Source: Escherichia coli (GTDB lineage: Bacteria > Pseudomonadota > Gammaproteobacteria > Enterobacterales > Enterobacteriaceae). From it: a stretch of 64,000 nucleotides of DNA. The translations under genes were made by a program, and so were the position numbers. Shown one piece after another: positions 7,921 through 21,546 of this stretch (within the stretch, counting starts at the first letter, position 1; every line of letters starts with the position of its first letter). The DNA lies in assembly GCF_009931435.1 (NCBI RefSeq), contig NZ_CP043414.1; one strand, 5' to 3'. A model generated the notes under the pieces. That model was not told the origin of the DNA and made no database searches. It saw nothing but the letters and a program-made list of their open reading frames with translations.

Positions 7921-10155
<2,235 letters not shown>

Positions 10156-10428: not shown

Positions 10429-11322
<894 letters not shown>

Positions 11323-11361
11323 TTACCTCATCAATCGCTTGTAGTTATATGTTGTGTTGTG

Positions 11362-11392
11362 CACATCTATCCGTTTAGACGTCCAGATGTAA
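11362..11392 (-). promoter_or_regulatory. MetJ operator (tandem met boxes) in metF promoter
   Basis: Minus-strand reading ACATCTGGACGTCTAAACGGATAGATGT, tandem 8-bp repeats near consensus AGACGTCT, 45-75 bp upstream of metF start. Confidence 0.6.
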
Positions 11393-11701
11393 AGATGAAG
11401 GAAAAGCTGAAGGGCGTCAACCGAAAAATGACCAATGATGGTGAGGAAAAATCAGGGAAGATGAAAAAAACTCATCTTAATTAGAGGTAATAAAGAGATT
11501 TCTTTATAGCGCAATCAACCTCACTCGTTTTGACTGATATACAGGCAACACAACGGCACCTGTTCTCATTCGAAAAACAACGCCCTGCCACCGGATGGTG
11601 ATGCTAAAGCATCTGATTCGGCCTGCGCTCTCGTGTAGGCCGAATACAGAATCTGCGAAATCAACGGGTAACAAACAGTAGAGTCAACTCAGTGCGTACT
11701 T

Positions 11702-13261
11702 TTACTTAATATCTTTCACGCGCATACCGTTGATCTGTTCATCCGTGATGGTATTACCCGCTTTAAAGTAATCAACCACCGCGTGATAAACGTAATAACC
11801 GCCCGTCGTATTGCGCGCTTTACCCTCGGTAAACGCGGTAAAACCATCTCCACCATCAGCAAGGAAACTCTGAGTGGCAATGTGGTAAACCGTCGCATCT
11901 TCAATCGGTTTGCCATTCAGAGTCAGCGAGATAACCCGCTGACCAACCGGCTTGCTGCTGTCGTACTTCATTTCCAGGCCTTTCGATACCTGTAAAACGC
12001 CATTACTCAAACTTGCGCCGTGTTCCATCAAACCGCGTAATTGTTTACCCGTGAGTTCCATCGTCACCAGTTCGTTGGGGAACGGGAAGGTACTGATGAC
12101 GCCACCCATCGTAATTGCACCCGCCGGGATCTCATTGCGAATCCCACCAGAGTTGGTTAACGCCAACTGGGTATTTTTACCCGCCGCTACCAGTAAAGCG
12201 TCCGCCGCCAGGTTCCCCAGGGATGCCGATTCACCATAGGCACGTTTTAATTCAACTGGCGATTGCGCCACCGTTTGCTGCACGACTTCATCCAGCTTTT
12301 TATTCCAACTATCAATCACCTGTTTTGTTTGCGCATCGGGCTTCCACTCGTCGGCGTAAAGGGTTTTAAGCTCGAAGTTTTTCACCGTAAAAGTGTGCGG
12401 TTTCTCTTTGAAGTCGAGAACCAGTTTACCCACATCAATCCCTCCGCTGTCAGTGGAAAGGATGAGCGTATTGCCGACTTTAATCGGTTCCGGCGTACCC
12501 ACATGTGCATGTCCGGTGATCAAAATATCCAGCCCTTTCACCTGACTTGCCGTCTGTATATCTTTATCCAGCGCGCGACGCACATCTGTGCCTCCCATAC
12601 TGGACTGGCGGGCCGGAACACCTTCGTGAATCAGGGCGACGGTCAAATCAACCTTGCCTTTGAGTTCATCGATATAACGTTGTAACCACTTAATTTCATC
12701 ACGCGCTTCAATACCCACTCGCGTGGCAGCGGATACCGTGTCATTAAAGGCAAATACTCCGTGCAAACCAATCACACCAATTTTCACGCCGTCTTTTTCA
12801 ATAATGGTATATGGCTTATCCCAGAATGATTTACTGCTGTTCTGATAAAAAATATTACCCTGCACAATCGGGAATTTTGCCTGACTCAACTGTAATAGGG
12901 TGTTGTCCCAGCCGTGATCAAATTCATGATTCCCTATAGTGACCGCATCGAACGGCATGGTATTCATAATATCGATAATCGCCTTGCCTTTAGTCAGGCT
13001 GCTGATATACGGCCCGGTAAAATAGTCACCCGCATCAAAAAACCAGGTCGCTTTGTTTTTAGCTTTTTCTTGTTTAACAAGCGTAGTGATATTTGCCCAG
13101 CCGCCAATATCCCGTTTACCGTCAGCAATCCACGGCACTTTATAAGGCTCTACATGTGCATGGAGGTCGTTGGTATAAATAATGGTGACATCTTTGGCGC
13201 AGGCCCAAAACGGCAGTGTTAATGCGATACCCGCAGCAAGCATTTTAATTTTCATAAACAA
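11702..13261 (-). CDS. Secreted bifunctional metallophosphatase/5'-nucleotidase family protein (paralog A)
   Basis: 519 aa; N-terminal signal peptide; calcineurin-like motifs DLHAHV, GDYFTG, GNHEFD, HEG, GHAHVG; C-terminal 5'-nucleotidase-like domain (UshA/CpdB architecture). Confidence 0.8.
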
Positions 13262-13313
13262 TCCCTTCCAGTGAGATAAAGGATTGCTACATTACGTTCT
13301 GAAAGGCTTTTTT

Positions 13314-13331
13314 ATGTGAGAATACTCACAT
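13314..13331. promoter_or_regulatory. Perfect palindrome ATGTGAG-AATA-CTCACAT in divergent intergenic region
   Basis: 18-bp dyad seen between the divergently transcribed nucleotidase A and Cys-rich protein genes; candidate operator. Confidence 0.3.
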
Positions 13332-13387
13332 CCAGAGGCGATAACTGTAGGACAAAATCAACGACCTTATGAAATCGTTGGTGATAT

Positions 13388-14515
13388 ATGTCAAATCTGT
13401 TTGCGATTAATGTCTGTAAAACGTTCGGTTGTCGAAATTTGGGATTGGCCTCATCGGAAGATTACAGTTGGCCAGACTATAAACTGGGTTTTCCGGCACT
13501 GCACTGCCAGGCATGCGGAAGTTACCCCCCTTTGTTTGATGAACAACAATTTCGTGACTGGTTGTCAGTTCACATGACTGCGTGTGCCATAGAAACAGGG
13601 CATTTTTGTCCATCATGCTATTGTAAAGAAAAGATTTTTTATGGCCACAACCCGCAGGGAACACAACGCGTTCAATGCCGTTCATGCAAAAAAGTCTGGA
13701 CTCCGAAACAGCAGCCAGCAAGAGAAATTACGTATCCCCAGTCCATTGAAACCGTTCAACTGTTCATGCCCTTTCAAGGAGCCAGCGCAGTACAAAAGCT
13801 CTATGTTTTAGTCAGTCTTGACGCCACTCGTGGCAACATCCTTCATCTCTCCACGAATTATACGCAACATCAGACAGGAGACAGTCTGCGGTACAGTTAC
13901 AGAGGCAATACAGAACCAACTGAGCACCATAGCGATATTGTGCAGAGGGTAGATATGCGTGAAGCGCAATTCTTGCGCCGGAGCCAGTTCGATGAAATTC
14001 AGTATGGCAGTGCTGTGCTCAAGCGCAACGGCAAGGGAGCCATACTACGCCCGGTTATCACGGCACACGGGCATTTCAGAATACTGAAAATCCGCTTTCC
14101 ACATGTCAAAACGCATATCATTTCACACGAATGTTTTCTGAGAGGCGCAATTATTACAGCCTGGGCAGATCAGTTCCGCCAACAACAAGGCGAACTTTGG
14201 TTCGTAGAAGAAGAAATCAGCGACCGTAACGCTGATATTCCCTGGCATTTTCAGGGAACGACATACCATGGTTGGTGGCAAAATCAGTGGCAACGCTGGG
14301 GGCAGGGGAATAACAGCAAGATGGTCTGCCTGCTCACAGGAGTCTCCTTAGAAAGGGGCGCAAATGTTTCTCTGGCAACCAGTCGTTGCTTTATCACATG
14401 GCTGACAGACCAACACGACTTTACCCAAAGCGCGTTATTATCCGCAGGTCGCGTAACGAAAATGCTGACCTCACTGGCGTTAAAATACAATGAATCGCTC
14501 ACTCCATCTTGTTAG
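13388..14515 (+). CDS. Cys-rich (putative zinc-ribbon) protein of unknown function
   Basis: 375-aa ORF; N-terminal clusters C-x2-C...C-x2-C (CQACGS, CPSCYC, CRSCKK) resembling zinc-ribbon modules; no confident family assignment. Confidence 0.55.
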   Translation: MSNLFAINVCKTFGCRNLGLASSEDYSWPDYKLGFPALHCQACGSYPPLFDEQQFRDWLSVHMTACAIETGHFCPSCYCKEKIFYGHNPQGTQRVQCRSCKKVWTPKQQPAREITYPQSIETVQLFMPFQGASAVQKLYVLVSLDATRGNILHLSTNYTQHQTGDSLRYSYRGNTEPTEHHSDIVQRVDMREAQFLRRSQFDEIQYGSAVLKRNGKGAILRPVITAHGHFRILKIRFPHVKTHIISHECFLRGAIITAWADQFRQQQGELWFVEEEISDRNADIPWHFQGTTYHGWWQNQWQRWGQGNNSKMVCLLTGVSLERGANVSLATSRCFITWLTDQHDFTQSALLSAGRVTKMLTSLALKYNESLTPSC

Positions 14516-14744
14516 TCAATACACTCGACAAACGACCATAAATTAATGGGATCACTATTTCTCATTTAATTAAATATATGAATGTATGACTGAAAAATAT
14601 AATCACAGTCAATGTTTAATTAATAACATTATTTGTTACTAAGATCACATAATACTTTCCTGACCTATGCTCTTATAAAAATAAGACACGGTGTTCCTTT
14701 TATTTAAATAATTCAACCAATGTAACAACCCCTATCAAGGAGGG

Positions 14745-16298
14745 ATGATGAGAACTGTATTTACGACTTTATCAGTCATATTCAGCGTGATGTTTTCTCA
14801 CAGTATACTAGCTCAGGACGTTACTATTTATTATACGAATGATATTCACGCACATGTCAATCCGGCAAAAATTCCCGCTGTTGATAAGAACAGACTTGTA
14901 GGTGGTATGGCTAATATTGCAGGCATCGTTAATGAAGCGAAGAAAAAAAACAAAGATGTCTTTTTCTTTGATGCAGGCGACTATTTTACCGGTCCGTATA
15001 TCAGTACCCTGACCAAAGGTGAAGCTATTATTGATATCATGAACACCATGCCCTTTGATGCGGTGTCCGTTGGTAATCACGAGTTCGATCACGGCGTGCC
15101 CAATATGGTATCTCAGTTATCAAAAGCAAAATTCCCCATTCTGCTGGGAAATATTTACTACACCGATACAAATAGACCAGTTTGGGATCATCCGTGGACC
15201 ATTATCGAAAAAGATGGTTTAAAGATTGGTGTGATTGGATTGCATGGTGCATTCGCTTTCTATGATACAGTCGCGGCAAAAGCACGTGAAGGCGTAGAAG
15301 CCAGAGACGAAATTAAATATTTAAATAAAGCACTTGCAGAATTAAAAGGTAAAGTCGACATTACCGTTTTGCTAATTCACGAAGGTGTTCCGGCGCGTCA
15401 ATCAAGCTTTGGTAGTAAAGATGTGGAGCGGCTACTACAGGCAGATATTGAGACAGCTAAAAAAGTGAATGGTGTTGATGTCTTAATTACCGGTCACGCA
15501 CATGTCGGAACACCGCAACCAATAAAAGTTAATAACACATTAATTGTATCTACCGATGCATACGGCACCGACATCGGAAAACTTGTGCTTGATTACAATC
15601 CGAAAACAAAGAAAATTGATAGTTATAATGGTGAGTTAATCACCATCTTTGCAGATCAATTTAAACCTGACACCATCGTTCAAAATACTATCGATAAATG
15701 GAGCGTAAAGCTTAACAAAATCACACAGGAAGTTGTCGGCCATTCTCCCGTAGTTTTAACACGTGAGTATGGCAGTTCTTCTTCTACCGGTAACCTTATT
15801 CTGGATGCAATGATGGAAAAAGCACCTGATGCCATTGCCGGATTTCAAAATAGCGGTGGGATGCGAGCTGATTTTCCTAAAGGTGATATCACACTGGGAG
15901 ATGTTATTAGCACATTCCCCTTTAATAATGACCTCATCGAGATGGATTTGACGGGCCGCGATCTCAAATCATTGATGACGCATGCAACCAATCTAACTAA
16001 CGGTGTGTTACAGGTTTCAAAAAGCGTTGCGGTTGTCTATGACAGCAAAAAACCACTCAACCAGCGGTTAATCTCTTTCACCATTAACGGCAAACCCGTG
16101 GAAGATAATCAAACATATCGTATTGCCACGCACTCCTTTTGTGCCAGTGGTGGTGACGGTTTTGAAGCATTTTTGAATGGAAAAAATGTGAAGACGATAC
16201 CGGGAACAACCTCGGCGGAATCTATCATCGATTATTTCAAAAATCATAAACCTGTCACCCCAGACTTAACTAAACGAGTCATGGACGTCGCCAAATAA
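14745..16298 (+). CDS. Secreted metallophosphatase/5'-nucleotidase family protein (paralog B)
   Basis: 517 aa; signal peptide; same metallophosphatase motif set as paralog A but most divergent of the three. Confidence 0.8.
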   Translation: MMRTVFTTLSVIFSVMFSHSILAQDVTIYYTNDIHAHVNPAKIPAVDKNRLVGGMANIAGIVNEAKKKNKDVFFFDAGDYFTGPYISTLTKGEAIIDIMNTMPFDAVSVGNHEFDHGVPNMVSQLSKAKFPILLGNIYYTDTNRPVWDHPWTIIEKDGLKIGVIGLHGAFAFYDTVAAKAREGVEARDEIKYLNKALAELKGKVDITVLLIHEGVPARQSSFGSKDVERLLQADIETAKKVNGVDVLITGHAHVGTPQPIKVNNTLIVSTDAYGTDIGKLVLDYNPKTKKIDSYNGELITIFADQFKPDTIVQNTIDKWSVKLNKITQEVVGHSPVVLTREYGSSSSTGNLILDAMMEKAPDAIAGFQNSGGMRADFPKGDITLGDVISTFPFNNDLIEMDLTGRDLKSLMTHATNLTNGVLQVSKSVAVVYDSKKPLNQRLISFTINGKPVEDNQTYRIATHSFCASGGDGFEAFLNGKNVKTIPGTTSAESIIDYFKNHKPVTPDLTKRVMDVAK

Positions 16299-16332
16299 AA
16301 TATCATTTATCAGTCTATTTATTTAACAAGGA

Positions 16333-17958
16333 ATGCGAATGAAAACAGTGCAGCGTACTTTACTTGCCGCAACATTGCTGACTATTTTTTCGGTTTCAGT
16401 CATGGCGCAGGATGTCACGATTATTTATACAAATGATCTTCACGCTCATGTGGATTCTTATAAAGTGCCGTATATCGCAGACGGAAAACGCGACATTGGC
16501 GGCTTTGCCAATATATCTACTTTAGTAAAACAAGAGAAAGCGAAAAATAAAGCCACCTTTTATTTTGATGCTGGAGACTATTTCACCGGCCCTTATATCA
16601 GCAGTCTGACAAAGGGCGAAGCAATAATTGACATTATGAATACCATGCCTTTTGACGCAGTATCAATCGGTAATCATGAGTTTGACCATGGCTGGGATAA
16701 TGCCCTGCGACAATTAAGCAAAGCGAATTTTCCTGTTTTATTGGGCAATGTTTATCATAAAGAGAGTGAGAAACCCTTCTGGAACAAGCCCTACACCATC
16801 CTGGAAAAAGATGGCATCAAGATTGGTATTATTGGGCTACACGGCGTATTTGCATTTAATGATACGGTCTCGGAGCTCTCTCTCCAGGGACTCGATAATG
16901 ACAATAATAACCGCTTTGATAAATCTTCCGAGACCCTTAAGAATCAGGGGATTGAAGCACGTGATGAAGTGAAGTATTTGCAACATTATATCGACGAGTT
17001 ACGTGATAAGGTTGACCTCACTGTGGCGCTGGTTCATGAAGGCGTTCCGGCGCGTCAGTCCAGCATTGGCAATACAGATGTTAGACGCGCTCTTGATAAA
17101 GATATTCAAACCGCTAGCAAGGTGAAAGGATTGGATATTCTGATTACCGGGCATGCCCACGTCGGAACGCCAGAACCAATCAAAGTCGGCAACACCTTAA
17201 TCCTTTCAACTGATAGTGGCGGTATCGATATTGGTAAATTAGTCCTTGATGTCAACCCTACAGCTCGTACCCATAAAATGAAGAGCTTTGAGCTGAAAAC
17301 AGTTTATGCCGATGAATGGATACCCGATCCAACGACACAAAAAGTTATCAATGGCTGGAATAAAAAACTGGCGGATATTGTACGCCAACCAGTGGGTGAA
17401 TCATCGATTGCATTAACTCGCGCCTATGGTGAGTCATCGCAACTAGGCAACCTGTTTACCGATGCAATGCTTGTCGCTGCTCCGACTGCACAGATTGCAT
17501 TGATAAACTCCGGCAGCTTACGTGCGGATATAAATGCAGGCACGATTACCTTTGGCGACATTACCAGTACATTCCCCTTCAAGAATGAACTTACTGAAAT
17601 GGATCTCAGCGGTAAGGATCTGCGTAACCTACTGGAACACGGGGCATCGCTTACCAATGGCATCCTGCAAATGTCAAAAGGCGCAGAAATGCGCTATACC
17701 CCGCAGAAACCAGTAGGTCAGCGCATAGTATCTTTTAAAATTAATAGTGAAGAGATCGTTGATACGAATATTTACCATGTTGCAACAACGACTTTCCTTG
17801 CACTGGGGGGCGATGGTTTTCTGGCATTCAAAGAAGGGAAAAATGTTCAGGTCCGCGCCGGAAATAACATGTCCGATGTCGTGATCGATTATTTGAAGAA
17901 AGGCCACAAGATTACGCCTGCACAGGTAAATGAAATGCGGGTGGACGTTAGCAAATAA
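16333..17958 (+). CDS. Secreted metallophosphatase/5'-nucleotidase family protein (paralog C)
   Basis: 541 aa; closely related to paralog A over most of its length, with a 20-aa insertion (ELSLQGLDNDNNNRFDKSSE...). Confidence 0.8.
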   Translation: MRMKTVQRTLLAATLLTIFSVSVMAQDVTIIYTNDLHAHVDSYKVPYIADGKRDIGGFANISTLVKQEKAKNKATFYFDAGDYFTGPYISSLTKGEAIIDIMNTMPFDAVSIGNHEFDHGWDNALRQLSKANFPVLLGNVYHKESEKPFWNKPYTILEKDGIKIGIIGLHGVFAFNDTVSELSLQGLDNDNNNRFDKSSETLKNQGIEARDEVKYLQHYIDELRDKVDLTVALVHEGVPARQSSIGNTDVRRALDKDIQTASKVKGLDILITGHAHVGTPEPIKVGNTLILSTDSGGIDIGKLVLDVNPTARTHKMKSFELKTVYADEWIPDPTTQKVINGWNKKLADIVRQPVGESSIALTRAYGESSQLGNLFTDAMLVAAPTAQIALINSGSLRADINAGTITFGDITSTFPFKNELTEMDLSGKDLRNLLEHGASLTNGILQMSKGAEMRYTPQKPVGQRIVSFKINSEEIVDTNIYHVATTTFLALGGDGFLAFKEGKNVQVRAGNNMSDVVIDYLKKGHKITPAQVNEMRVDVSK

Positions 17959-17970
17959 TAAAAAAATTAT

Positions 17971-18007
17971 AATGCCATTCATTCACTGAATGGCATTATT
18001 TTTCTCT
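17971..18007 (+). terminator. Hairpin plus T-run between nucleotidase C and the tsx-like gene
   Basis: AATGCCATTCA-TTCAC-TGAATGGCATT followed by ATTTTTCTC. Confidence 0.45.
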
Positions 18008-18036
18008 AAATCAACAATAGATAATGAGATATATTT

Positions 18037-18897
18037 ATGTGTATAAAAAAGCACGGGATAGCTTTATCGATTCTATTAATACCTTGCATTGGAAACGCTC
18101 AGGAAATTAAAAGTGAGGAAGGCTGGTTACATCAAAGCTTGAATGTCATTGGTCGCACAGACTCTCGCTTTGGCCCAAGGCTGACTAACGACCTCTACCC
18201 TGAATATACTGTAGCAGGAAGAAAAGACTGGTTTGATTTTTATGGTTATGTTGATCTACCAAAATTCTTTGGCGTCGGCAGTCACTATGATGTTGGGATC
18301 TGGGATGAGGGCTCACCACTATTTACGGAAATAGAACCTCGGTTTTCCATTGACAAATTGACCGGATTAAATCTTGCGTTCGGCCCTTTTAAAGAATGGT
18401 TCATTGCAAACAACTATGTCTATGATATGGGTGACAACCAGTCATCCCGGCAAAGTACATGGTATATGGGGCTTGGTACAGATATCGACACGGGTCTACC
18501 AATTAAGCTTTCTGCCAATATATACGCCAAGTATCAGTGGCAAAACTATGGTGCCGCTAATGAAAATGAATGGGACGGATATCGATTCAAAATAAAATAT
18601 AGCATTCCTCTTACCCATTTATTCGGAGGGCGATTGGTATACAATAGTTTTACTAACTTTGATTTTGGCTCCGATCTTGCGGACAAATCACACAATAATA
18701 AACGAACCAGTAATGCTATTGCTTCAAGCCATATCCTTTCCCTGCTATATGAACACTGGAAATTTGCATTTACACTACGTTATTTTCACAACGGTGGACA
18801 ATGGAATGCTGGGGAGAAAGTTAACTTCGGAGATGGTCCATTTGAATTAAAAAACACAGGATGGGGAACCTATACTACTATTGGTTATCAATTTTAA
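18037..18897 (+). CDS. Tsx-family nucleoside-specific outer-membrane channel paralog
   Basis: 286 aa; signal peptide; long collinear similarity to E. coli Tsx ([72 protein letters not shown]-terminal GY-F). Confidence 0.85.
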
Positions 18898-19078
18898 ATC
18901 AGGTGATGTTTTAGATATTTTTACTTAATGCCATTTTGTAATTGTCATAAATAACTTCACCATTCACACTGTGAATTCATCGCTCAACACAAAAGCCCCC
19001 TTATTACCGGGGCACTGACCAAAGGCAAAATGACAATCAATCACCACCTCCGCAGGAGGTGGTTTAGAGGTGACAACA

Positions 19079-19104
19079 AAAGCTGGCAACTGCCAGCTTT
19101 TGTT
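19079..19104. terminator. Symmetric, bidirectional-type hairpin downstream of metL
   Basis: AAAAGCTGGCA-ACT-GCCAGCTTTT with U-tracts on both strands, immediately 3' of the metL stop. Confidence 0.55.
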
Positions 19105-19113
19105 CAATAATCA

Positions 19114-21546
19114 CTACAACAACTGCGCCAGACGGTTAATATCCGACTGAATCGCCCCGGCGGTGACGTCGCGCCCTGCGCCTGGCCCACGGATCACCAG
19201 CGGGTTGTCGCGATACCAGCGGCTTTCGATGGCAAAGACGTTATCGCACGGTAGTAGTGATGCCAGCGGATGGTCTTCTCGCACCGCTTCCACGCCTACT
19301 CGCGCTTTGCCGTTAGCATCGAAACGCGCCACGTAGCGCAACACCAGCCCCATTTCACGGGCCGCTTCCAACCGTTGTACCATCTGCTCATTAAGTTCAT
19401 CGCCATTTTCAAAGAAATGGTCGATGCTGCCACCTTCGCAATGGGTTGGCACCAGTGATTCAACACGCACCTGGTCCGGTTCAATGTTGTAACCCGCTTC
19501 ACGCGCCAGAATCACCAGCTTGCGCATCACGTCTTTGCCGGAGAGGTCATCACGCGGGTCAGGTTCAGTTAAGCCCTGCTGCCACGCCTGATCCACCAGC
19601 TCGGTAAACGGCACGCTACCGTCGAATTGCAGGAACAGCCAGGAGAGCGTGCCGGAGAAGATCCCGCTGATCGACAAAATAGTGTCGCCGCTGTCGATCA
19701 GATCGCGCACGGTATGGTTGATCGGCAAACCTGCGCCGACGGTGGCGTTGTATAGCCAGTGACGCCCGGTTTTTTCGAACGCGTCGTGGATCTGTCGATA
19801 TTTATTGCTGTCGCTGGCTCCCGCCAGTTTGTTGGCACTGATGACGTGGAAACCGTGGCTGGCGAAATCGAGATACTGATCAGCAAGCTGCTGGCTGGCA
19901 GTAACGTCCAGCACAACTAAATCATCATACGGATGGGCACGCATCCACAGGAACAGCGACTCTTCATCCTGTTCGACGGCTTCATCATTAAAGAAGGCTA
20001 GCGCACGGCTGGCGTCCAGCCCGTCATAGCTCAACAGGCTGCGACGGCTGTCCACCACGCCTGCCAGCACAAATTCAAAGCCGGTGCGCGCCGAGAGTGT
20101 ACTCTGCTCACGGGCGAACAGTTCCAGCCAGCGGGAACCGATATTGCCCTTACCGAACAATACCAGGCCGATGCGTTTTTCTGCGCGGAAGACGGACTGA
20201 TGCAGCCCCTGAATCAGGCTTTCGGTCGGGCCGGTGCGCAGTACTGCCACCAGGCTGATGCCGTCATCGGACTGCCAGGTAAACTCGACCGGCTGGCCTT
20301 TCAGTTGCTGCCAGAAGCGGTGGCAATGCAGCGGGTTACGGGTGACGCCCGCCCCAACCATCGCCACCAGCGCCAGCCCCTGACGCAGACGCAGTTCGCC
20401 GGGTAATCCTGCTTCGTCGAGGATTTTCAGCGCACTGTCGGCCACTTCCGAGGTGTAGCAAAATTGCAGCAACTGGCGATCGTTATGCACGCCAACTGCC
20501 AGTGGGCGCACCTGAGCACGTTTCAGGATTTGGTCGATCTCTTTATGCGCCAGTTTAAAATCCTGACTGGCGGGCACCTGAAACTCAATCAAACAGACAT
20601 CATCGTGGCTGGTGACAATACGCGCGCCAGTACCTGAGGCCAGCACGCGTTCAATGCGCGTGGAACCTTGATCCGGCGTGTAGCTACAGCGCAGCTGCAG
20701 GTCGATTTCGCTGCCAGAAACTGGCTGTAAAGTACGGGCGTGAAGAACGGGGGCCGCCAGACGCGCCAGTTCGCTGGCTTCATCCAGACGCAGCAACGGC
20801 AGCAGGCAGGCGTCTTTCACTTTACGCGGGTCGGCGCTATATACCCCGGCGACATCGCTCCAGATGGTTACGCGGGAAACTCCCGCCAGCGCACCGATTT
20901 GTGTCGCGGAATAGTCGGAACCGTTACGCCCCAGCAGCACCGTTTCACCGGCGTTGTTACGGCTGATAAACCCGGTCACCACCAGACGTTTGCCCGGATG
21001 TTGTACCAGTAGCTGTTGCAGCAACGGGTAAGAAAGCCCTTCATCAACCTGCGGCTGCGCGGCGCGTTCAGCGCGTAAAAACTCGCGGGCATCAAGCCAG
21101 GCCGCTGGCAGCCCTTGTTGATTAAGTACCGCAGACATCAGGCGCGCCGACCACACTTCACCGTGGCCCACCACTTCCGCATACACCGCATCGTTAATAC
21201 CGCTGTCGAGCAGCGCCGCCAGGCGTTCCAGATCGCTGACAAAAGCGCTAATGAGGCTATCGGCTTCTTCAGCGGGTAGCAGGCCGCTAATCAGATCGCA
21301 CTGATAGCGACGCAGCGTTTGTTGAACCTGATGCGCAGAGAGACGATCGGTCTGGCTTAGTTTCAACCAGTTAATCAACTGGTTAGTGGTGCTACCGGCG
21401 GCGGAAACCACCATCATATCGTCAGGCTGAGAGTACTCCGCCATAATGCCCGCGACACGCAAATAACACTTCACATCAGCCAGACTACTGCCACCAAATT
21501 TATGCAGTTGACGACCTTTCGCCCCTGCCTGCGCAATCACACTCAT
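19114..21546 (-). CDS. metL: Bifunctional aspartokinase II / homoserine dehydrogenase II
   Basis: 810-aa ORF; start overlaps metB stop region (operon metBL). Confidence 0.95.
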   Translation of the reverse strand: MSVIAQAGAKGRQLHKFGGSSLADVKCYLRVAGIMAEYSQPDDMMVVSAAGSTTNQLINWLKLSQTDRLSAHQVQQTLRRYQCDLISGLLPAEEADSLISAFVSDLERLAALLDSGINDAVYAEVVGHGEVWSARLMSAVLNQQGLPAAWLDAREFLRAERAAQPQVDEGLSYPLLQQLLVQHPGKRLVVTGFISRNNAGETVLLGRNGSDYSATQIGALAGVSRVTIWSDVAGVYSADPRKVKDACLLPLLRLDEASELARLAAPVLHARTLQPVSGSEIDLQLRCSYTPDQGSTRIERVLASGTGARIVTSHDDVCLIEFQVPASQDFKLAHKEIDQILKRAQVRPLAVGVHNDRQLLQFCYTSEVADSALKILDEAGLPGELRLRQGLALVAMVGAGVTRNPLHCHRFWQQLKGQPVEFTWQSDDGISLVAVLRTGPTESLIQGLHQSVFRAEKRIGLVLFGKGNIGSRWLELFAREQSTLSARTGFEFVLAGVVDSRRSLLSYDGLDASRALAFFNDEAVEQDEESLFLWMRAHPYDDLVVLDVTASQQLADQYLDFASHGFHVISANKLAGASDSNKYRQIHDAFEKTGRHWLYNATVGAGLPINHTVRDLIDSGDTILSISGIFSGTLSWLFLQFDGSVPFTELVDQAWQQGLTEPDPRDDLSGKDVMRKLVILAREAGYNIEPDQVRVESLVPTHCEGGSIDHFFENGDELNEQMVQRLEAAREMGLVLRYVARFDANGKARVGVEAVREDHPLASLLPCDNVFAIESRWYRDNPLVIRGPGAGRDVTAGAIQSDINRLAQLL

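Follow-up and report, generated by a model that had tools for sequence, protein, structure and literature searches.

Why should an Escherichia coli chromosome carry, beside the housekeeping tsx gene, a second gene of the same family, and what would the encoded channel be used for? Tsx is the entry gate for nucleosides as well as for T6-like phages, colicin K, and albicidin-class gyrase inhibitors. The question is raised by a gene referred to here as tsx2, which lies in the window (the whole 64-kb stretch of E. coli chromosome that was analysed) within the order katG, metF, a five-gene insert, metL, metB, metJ, and yiiX. It is reasonable to assume, and we consider it the probable answer, that tsx2 encodes a working Tsx-type channel serving as the outer-membrane component of a nucleotidase cassette.

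The island and its last gene

The features of the locus are as follows (positions in the window).

7921-10140, minus strand: katG
10429-11319, minus strand: metF
11470..19114: accessory island between metF and metL, 7,645 bp; borders from the blastn comparison to K-12
11702..13255, minus strand: nt5A, exported 5'-nucleotidase, 517 aa
13315..13330: perfect CRP-type palindrome, TGTGAGAATACTCACA, in the divergent promoter region of nt5A and the 375-aa gene
13388..14515, plus strand: gene for a 375-aa Cys-rich "cytoplasmic protein", cassette partner and candidate regulator
14634..14649: CRP-like site with one mismatch, upstream of nt5B; also in CFT073
14745..16298, plus strand: nt5B, exported metallophosphatase/5'-nucleotidase, 517 aa (Pfam)
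16333..17958, plus strand: nt5C, exported metallophosphatase/5'-nucleotidase, 541 aa (Pfam Metallophos and 5_nucleotid_C)
17969..18008, plus strand: terminator-like hairpin (13-bp stem, 5-nt loop) and T-run, directly after the nt5C stop codon
18026..18029, plus strand: GAGA, a weak Shine-Dalgarno sequence seen by direct reading, 7 nt ahead of the ATG
18037..18897, plus strand: tsx2, encoding a 286-aa Tsx-family outer-membrane channel (open reading frame, profiles, AF2 model)
18037..18099, plus strand: predicted Sec signal peptide of tsx2, 21 residues followed by QE at the putative cleavage site
19075..19104: likely bidirectional terminator, a perfect palindrome of 14 bp, between the convergent genes tsx2 and metL
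19114-21546, minus strand: metL, convergent to tsx2

In K-12, metL lies next to metF at a distance of 348 bp, and comparison by blastn indicates that 199 bp of the K-12 metL-metF sequence are replaced by the island; in the same comparison, the last 268 bp of metL are 92% identical to K-12 and the metF side is 97.7% identical. The G+C content is 0.34-0.51 in the island (0.36-0.41 in tsx2), compared with 0.55-0.62 toward metL and 0.43-0.59 in the flank with metF and katG. As originally predicted, tsx2 is the terminal gene of the island, i.e., the final gene before the convergent metL, and it holds this place in every carrier. A search for mobility signatures saw no tRNA-type site, integrase, or IS in the island. 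A 14-nt direct repeat (11697/18916), considered as a trace of mobility, and a 19-nt similarity between a hairpin arm and 18926-18944 were both dismissed, as matches of this kind are expected by chance in an AT-rich region of 7.9 kb, and an Rfam scan of 11000-19500 returned no known RNA family.

Among the partners of tsx2, nt5A encodes a near-identical relative of the crystallised protein of PDB 3IVD/3IVE (phmmer, 1109 bits over 499 residues for 3IVD). The 375-aa protein has no Pfam match and weakly matches (NCBIfam, E 4e-4) the N-terminal zinc-finger region of IS1 type; its gene is divergently paired with nt5A in every cassette. The nucleotidases had been described as secreted. This description is apt insofar as Sec-type signal peptides can be read from their sequences, but the expected location of such proteins would be periplasmic rather than extracellular.

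In terms of distribution, canonical tsx was found by megablast with the K-12 gene as query in 5424 of 5426 complete E. coli genomes, and tsx2 in 660 of the 5426 (12%), always as a single copy and always on the chromosome. The whole island is present in 658 of these 5426 genomes. In 658 of the 660 carriers of tsx2, the match extends over 80% or more of the query, so that the gene is close to complete; the carriers include CFT073, Nissle 1917, NU14, UM146, F11, E2348/69, and SMS-3-5. The exact window protein occurs, under the name Tsx, on at least 1000 contigs. In 1182 of the 5426 genomes, the island is present in a shortened form from which nt5B, nt5C, and tsx2 have been deleted. Thus, tsx2 is an extra copy, a paralog beside the housekeeping gene; that it might instead be the ortholog of housekeeping tsx (b0411) is ruled out by its locus, its operon, an identity of 65%, its separate clade, and the coexistence of both genes. 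K-12 tsx is monocistronic and lies between yajD and yajI, whereas tsx2 occupies another locus and another operon.

It should be noted that RefSeq already lists the gene under the name Tsx; its identification is not new and, as annotation, is ordinary. Its ortholog in CFT073, c4894 (C_RS23130, annotated tsx), adjoins metL at the same site, with 97.8% nucleotide identity and six amino-acid differences, which fall in the signal peptide, in the N-terminal segment, or at H194N. In a table of CFT073 RNA-seq results, c4894 is up by log2FC 3.3 under tosR overexpression (PMC5956150). This table was the sole trace of the gene in the literature search, in which no paper discussing a Tsx paralog of E. coli was found; likewise, nothing relevant was found on c4895-c4898 or on 3IVD/3IVE.

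Fold, loops, and barrel wall

The open reading frame for the 286-aa protein runs, exactly as originally predicted, from an ATG at 18037 to 18897 on the plus strand, stop codon included, and the same ATG is the PGAP start in matching genomes. Collinearity with Tsx, also anticipated, is borne out by BLASTP, in which residues 30-286 align with residues 34-294 of K-12 Tsx at about 65% identity over 262 residues (E = 6e-128, well outside the range of chance), interrupted by two gaps, one of 1 residue and one of 5. The beta-barrel family signature is present in profile searches, above the curated cutoffs of both Pfam and NCBIfam: PF03502 (Channel_Tsx) matches with 4.9e-70 and 236.5 bits (cutoff 27.2) over profile positions 4-244 of 244, and PRK15106 (NF011686) with 491.8 bits (curated cutoff 311). 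A phmmer comparison with PDB 1TLW gave 1.4e-114. An AF2 model built on a 77-sequence alignment (pLDDT 88, pTM 0.83) has twelve predicted strands, and its best PDB matches in Foldseek are 1tlw_A and 1tlw_B (TM 0.93-0.94, rmsd 1.3-1.6 A), with the runner-up at E 2.7e-6. K-12 Tsx (b0411; PDB 1TLW/1TLY/1TLZ) therefore shares with tsx2 its Pfam and NCBIfam family and the predicted 12-stranded barrel; the two are collinear over the whole mature protein, and both have a signal peptide and a C-terminal Phe, although the mature N-terminus of tsx2 is about 7 residues shorter.

Signs of outer-membrane targeting can be read directly at both ends of the protein. The signal peptide has a KK n-region, a hydrophobic core, and G-N-A before the cut, and AF2 places a helix of low pLDDT at residues 9-17; the C-terminus, ...TIGYQF-COOH, ends in an aromatic residue. 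A lipobox at Cys17 was considered and ruled out because this residue is Phe in the Citrobacter enshiensis ortholog. In the best-matching genome, NZ_CP074749.1, PGAP calls the gene a pseudogene with a missing C-terminus; when translated, the open reading frame there proves complete, with a single synonymous base difference, so that the call is an annotation artefact. tsx2 is thus an intact, full-length Tsx-family protein. A distant relative with the same Pfam family is Vibrio OmpK, a member of the Tsx family that acts as the receptor of vibriophage KVP40; truncated tsx2 fragments are labelled "outer membrane protein OmpK" by PGAP.

Where does tsx2 depart from the housekeeping protein? Divergence had been predicted for the surface loops. 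With regions defined by the strands of the AF2 model, identity to K-12 Tsx is 58% (47/81) in extracellular loops, 68% (101/148) in strands, and 73% (19/26) in periplasmic turns, and it falls to 18% over the signal peptide and the first 8 mature residues. Both indels lie in extracellular loops (L2 is longer by 1 residue and L5 shorter by 5), and the loops are less alike than strands and turns, so this part of the expectation stood; nonetheless, the strands diverge too. The difference in identity between loops and the rest is weak (Fisher p = 0.09), and strands b1, b2, b11, and b12, at 36-58% identity, have diverged as much as the loops.

The pattern in the strands is uneven. When strand faces are assigned by alternation and hydrophobicity, a procedure that uses strand parity and no coordinates, the polar faces of b3-b8 differ from those of K-12 Tsx at only 2 of 38 positions, compared with 19 of 36 in b1, b2, and b9-b12, and one contiguous wall of the barrel, formed by the latter strands, therefore appears to have been remodelled in tsx2. 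At 17 positions where other Tsx proteins show 90% conservation or more, the tsx2 clade has a different residue, and these changes cluster in b1, b2, and b11. The net charge of the mature protein is -6, versus -12 in K-12 Tsx, with charge gains from S22R, H228K, and S138K. These features are consistent with a channel of altered specificity, in which tsx2 and the linked paralogs described below would admit phosphorylated substrates for the periplasmic nucleotidases rather than nucleosides. We regard this reading as unlikely. The pore-facing assignment comes from alternation and hydrophobicity only, one half of the lining of the barrel hardly differs from that of Tsx, and tsx2 remains net acidic; moreover, the residues important for the passage of nucleosides and albicidin are conserved. 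Indeed, mutations that abolish albicidin uptake by Tsx affect F27, G28, S217, G239, and G240 (PMC8245764 Table S2), and all five residues are identical in tsx2 in the alignment.

The loops bear on a different possibility, namely that tsx2 is a surface-variant receptor, alternative or decoy, that alters susceptibility to Tsx-binding phages (T6-like), colicin K, and albicidin-type antibiotics, with transport being secondary. Sites of T6 resistance in Tsx include N249 and N254 (PMC8245764 Table S2). Of the T6 receptor determinants in L6 (N249, N254, and segment 239-244), N249, G239, and G240 are kept in tsx2, while N254 is replaced by Pro and D244 by Ala. Loop L6, the T6 receptor area, differs from K-12 Tsx at 12 of 23 residues, N254 among them, and, together with the shortening of L5, this is what a variant receptor might look like; between tsx2 orthologs, moreover, loops change about twice as fast as strands (14/81 vs 13/148 residues). 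However, the idea that selection diversifies the loops within E. coli was considered and rejected, as the two alleles have no amino-acid change in any loop, and dN/dS is low (0.05 in the comparison with the C. enshiensis ortholog, where dS is at saturation, and 0.12 in that with the CFT073 allele). In addition, an extra receptor would normally be a liability, and the conserved operon linkage to nucleotidases favours a metabolic role, which makes a primarily receptor-like function quite improbable.

The hairpin between nt5C and tsx2

How, then, would the channel be expressed? The original prediction placed a hairpin at 17971-18007 in front of tsx2 and took it as a sign of attenuated or separate expression. 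The hairpin is real, but the stem-loop itself occupies 17969-17999. It has a perfect 13-bp stem with 4 G-C pairs and a 5-nt loop; the sequence after the stem is TTTTTCTCT, with the U-run UUUUUCUCU downstream of the hairpin. Its folding energy is -16.7 kcal/mol (z = -7.0), and none of 200 shuffled sequences was as stable. In all six cassette sequences compared, the hairpin follows directly 3' of the nt5C stop codon, with either tsx2 or a non-Tsx gene behind it, and the pairing has been conserved through covariation: in these six sequences, both partners are exchanged in 5 of the 13 pairs, and pairing holds in 96% of cells. The stable stem-loop, the direct U-run, and the conserved structure are, at the level of structure only, those of an intrinsic terminator. 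In some other species, the hairpin lacks the U-run. Because it is kept after nt5C whatever follows, the hairpin reads as a 3' stem-loop or terminator of nt5C and not as a tsx2-specific device, on the evidence of sequence comparison.

Only 37 nt separate the hairpin from the tsx2 ATG, and no credible promoter was found in this interval. The motif GATAAT at 18020-18025 was examined as a tsx2 promoter and rejected, as it has no -35 element and would leave a leader of only about 5 nt. At the end of nt5C, a weak sigma-70-like match (17930-17959) agrees at 9 of 12 positions, in a region poorer in promoter-like sites than its shuffles. Separate expression of tsx2 is therefore unsupported, whereas attenuated read-through is plausible.

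The degree of attenuation appears to vary among lineages. The strong hairpin (-16.7 kcal/mol) belongs to the junction of the window type, which is found in 101 genomes, whereas the CFT073-type junction, in which two adjacent mismatches reduce the stability to -5.3 kcal/mol, occurs in 557 of 658 carriers; on the basis of these alleles, attenuation is probably strong in the lineage of the window and weak in B2. The strong hairpin and the weak Shine-Dalgarno sequence may keep tsx2 expression very low in the window's lineage, a point against the reading that we favour.

Signals that might govern the cassette as a whole lie further upstream. The palindrome at 13315..13330 is the sole perfect CRP-type match in the window and has the same place in all cassette versions. 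With the one-mismatch site in front of nt5B, it suggests catabolite control of the cassette, which would fit catabolic scavenging, both sites being consensus matches only. Upstream of tsx2 (17900-18036), there is no TGTGA-N6-TCACA site with at most one mismatch, and the lack of a CRP-type site directly upstream is one of the differences between tsx2 and K-12 tsx.

Within this context, tsx2 could also be viewed as a silent passenger, i.e., an AT-rich gene that was gained by horizontal transfer, is in effect not expressed (silenced by H-NS and placed behind a terminator), and is heading for loss. Its low G+C content, the lack of its own promoter, its weak Shine-Dalgarno sequence, and the 1182 genomes in which the island persists without nt5B, nt5C, and tsx2 would all be in line with such a fate. 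Nonetheless, the reading frame is near full length in almost all carriers and under strong purifying selection, the commonest junction allele has a weakened hairpin that favours read-through, and the transcript is inducible in CFT073 (PMC5956150). The dN/dS values given above indicate a gene that is maintained and not decaying, and we consider a silent passenger very unlikely.

The nucleotidase cassette and its Tsx components

If tsx2 belongs to a cassette, the history of that cassette should be informative. In a search of 5.8 billion clustered proteins, the only members of the tsx2 clade were E. coli sequences (98-100% identical) and that of C. enshiensis (85%); outside this clade, all relatives are at most 69% identical. 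In C. enshiensis, the same island occupies the same katG-metF/metL site. C. freundii, E. albertii, and E. asburiae have a differently ordered cassette at other chromosomal sites. The C. freundii-type order is the 375-aa gene (divergent), nt5A, nt5B, Tsx, nt5C, and a downstream gene, with an extra nt5 gene between nt5A and nt5B in E. albertii; the Tsx gene lies 22 nt upstream of nt5C in all three species, and the gene after nt5C encodes a radical-SAM protein, except in E. asburiae, where its product is a 350-aa protein with no Pfam match. In C. amalonaticus, the Tsx that is closest to tsx2 sits 30 nt after an nt5C-like gene in a two-gene operon with a CRP-like site upstream.

The components of the window and C. 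freundii-type cassettes have not diverged equally. Identity is 90-92% for nt5A, 86-87% for nt5C, 72-73% for nt5B, 67-70% for the 375-aa protein, and 57-59% for Tsx, the last being below the 64.5% between tsx2 and housekeeping Tsx. In a neighbour-joining (NJ) tree with 200 bootstrap replicates, the tsx2 clade was recovered in 100% of replicates and its grouping with the Cronobacter/C. amalonaticus clade in 86.5%, whereas tsx2 grouped exclusively with the C. freundii-type cassette Tsx in 3%. Because of this last value, the Tsx component is read from the sequences as not orthologous between cassette versions, unlike nt5A and nt5C, and the pattern suggests that it has been exchanged. That the Tsx partner is far more diverged (57-59%) than nt5A and nt5C (86-92%) counts against the simple form of the reading that we favour: the component may have been replaced by another and need not share the specificity of Tsx.

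Despite this divergence, the association with nucleotidases recurs. The other nucleotidase-linked Tsx proteins (those of C. amalonaticus, of Cronobacter at sprT-galP, and of C. freundii/E. albertii/Enterobacter) are 57-68% identical to tsx2, and their genes adjoin orthologs of nt5A, nt5B, nt5C, and the 375-aa gene. These genes differ from tsx2 in chromosomal site and in position, as they either separate nt5B from nt5C or follow nt5C at a distance of 30 nt, with no hairpin. Tsx paralogs are thus found beside nucleotidases in at least three arrangements across Enterobacteriaceae. The functional link that had been proposed for a paralog co-encoded with nucleotidases is upheld by this recurrence, which is the strongest available argument for a Tsx-nucleotidase partnership. 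Taken with the low dN/dS (0.05-0.12), the recurrent adjacency points to a cassette component that has been maintained.

It is on these grounds that we favour tsx2 as a working channel of the cassette. According to this model, tsx2 would be a monomeric 12-stranded outer-membrane channel, an old paralog distinct from housekeeping tsx, which would act with three exported UshA-like 5'-nucleotidases and a conserved Cys-rich cytoplasmic protein in the scavenging of nucleotides and nucleosides. The cassette would be switched on under catabolite derepression through the CRP-type sites at the nt5A/375-aa and nt5B promoters. Lacking its own promoter, tsx2 would be transcribed by read-through from nt5B-nt5C across the 3' hairpin of nt5C, and its product would be exported by the Sec pathway and inserted by BAM. 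The channel would then pass nucleosides or closely related nucleotide-derived solutes, which would be harvested by the periplasmic nucleotidases and by inner-membrane nucleoside transporters.

The same recurrence, however, also speaks for altered specificity. Nucleotidases located in the periplasm require nucleotides there, not nucleosides, so that a plain nucleoside channel is not their obvious partner, and the repeated linkage of Tsx paralogs to nt5C-type nucleotidases, in three arrangements, would make sense if the channel supplied their substrates. Furthermore, all three nucleotidase-linked Tsx clades have in common L37P, the loss of E40, and V232T/S (Thr in most sequences and Ser in one v2-type sequence). 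It is conceivable, although we would not expect it, that the Tsx fold has been recruited repeatedly into nucleotidase operons and retuned for phosphorylated, nucleotide-type substrates, tsx2 being a nucleotide channel. The retuning might have proceeded, in a similarly speculative scheme, through the wall formed by b1, b2, and b9-b12, the neighbourhood of L1, and a less acidic lining, and the candidate substrates would include nucleoside monophosphates, dinucleotides such as NAD, and UDP-sugars. Nucleotides already enter through general porins, and this, with the conserved residues discussed above, weighs against the need for such a channel.

About 12% of complete E. coli genomes thus contain a second, diverged, and selectively maintained Tsx, and the carriers include major extraintestinal-pathogenic B2 lineages as well as the probiotic Nissle 1917. 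Should the channel indeed be retuned for nucleotides, extraintestinal-pathogenic E. coli of B2 would hold a back-up route for albicidin- and cystobactamid-type antibiotics and for Tsx-binding phages. A second Tsx could also affect how easily resistance to Tsx-dependent phages and antibiotics arises through the loss of tsx. The gene also points to a dedicated nucleotide-scavenging module.

States of the metF-metL locus

Three states can be distinguished at metF-metL in E. coli, namely an empty, K-12-like junction, a long island that includes tsx2, and a short form. The long island with tsx2 was found in 658-660 of 5426 genomes, and the short form, in which nt5A and the 375-aa gene are the only genes retained, in 1182 of the same 5426. 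When two short-form loci (L014 and L015) are compared with the island (window 11470-19114), homology ends near 14328 and restarts at the metL stop codon, and the end of the 376-aa gene of these loci is formed by antisense metL sequence. This antisense metL ending suggests that the short form arose by a deletion in which nt5B, nt5C, and tsx2 were lost.

The flanks of the island differ in their identity to K-12: the metF side is 97.7% identical, whereas the last 268 bp of the metL 3' end (window 19115-19382) reach only 92%. This difference fits arrival or spread of the island via homologous recombination through its flanks, without mobility genes. Between the convergent tsx2 and metL genes, window 18990-19104 holds three hairpins in succession, and the K-12 sequence downstream of metL differs from this segment:

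About 18993-19013: hairpin 1, between tsx2 and metL
About 19043-19063: hairpin 2, between tsx2 and metL
19075-19104: hairpin 3, a perfect 14-bp palindrome, between tsx2 and metL

In NZ_CP074749.1, tsx2 (L001 9738-10583) is labelled by PGAP as a pseudogene "missing C-terminus". This call can be ruled out, since the 861-nt ORF is intact and differs from that of the window by one synonymous base.

nt5A, the 375-aa gene, and the palindrome between them

The genes shared by the long and short forms are divergent, and a palindrome lies between them:

11702-13255, minus strand: nt5A, essentially identical to the PDB 3IVD/3IVE protein (1109 bits)
13315-13330: perfect CRP-type palindrome TGTGAGAATACTCACA, between divergent nt5A and the 375-aa gene
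13388-14515, plus strand: cassette gene for a 375-aa Cys-rich "cytoplasmic protein"

The title of the 3IVD/3IVE deposition is "Nucleotidase", and no accompanying paper was found; it comes from structural genomics and represents CFT073 c4898 with uridine or cytidine bound. The 375-aa gene is widespread in Enterobacteriaceae, with nt5A as its constant divergent partner. Its product contains no Pfam domain and matches the IS1-type N-terminal zinc-finger region only weakly; it may regulate the cassette. The palindrome is the sole perfect match to its type within the 64 kb window, and its position is kept in CFT073, C. enshiensis, E. albertii, C. freundii, and E. asburiae. Either CRP or the 375-aa protein could bind it, in the latter case as an operator.

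Cassettes and Tsx paralogs elsewhere

The cassettes of C. freundii and E. albertii carry a radical-SAM gene 3' of the conserved nt5C hairpin (L007 9612-10760 and L009 9699-10352), a gene that the window island lacks. A further Tsx paralog, that of the Cronobacter/C. amalonaticus clade, is found on a contig from run SRR35171898 (L005 7160-8849), where it is inserted between sprT-endA and galP, and the named members of its protein cluster are from Cronobacter. The nearby endA encodes periplasmic endonuclease I; this is another Tsx copy adjoining a gene for a nucleic-acid-degrading enzyme.
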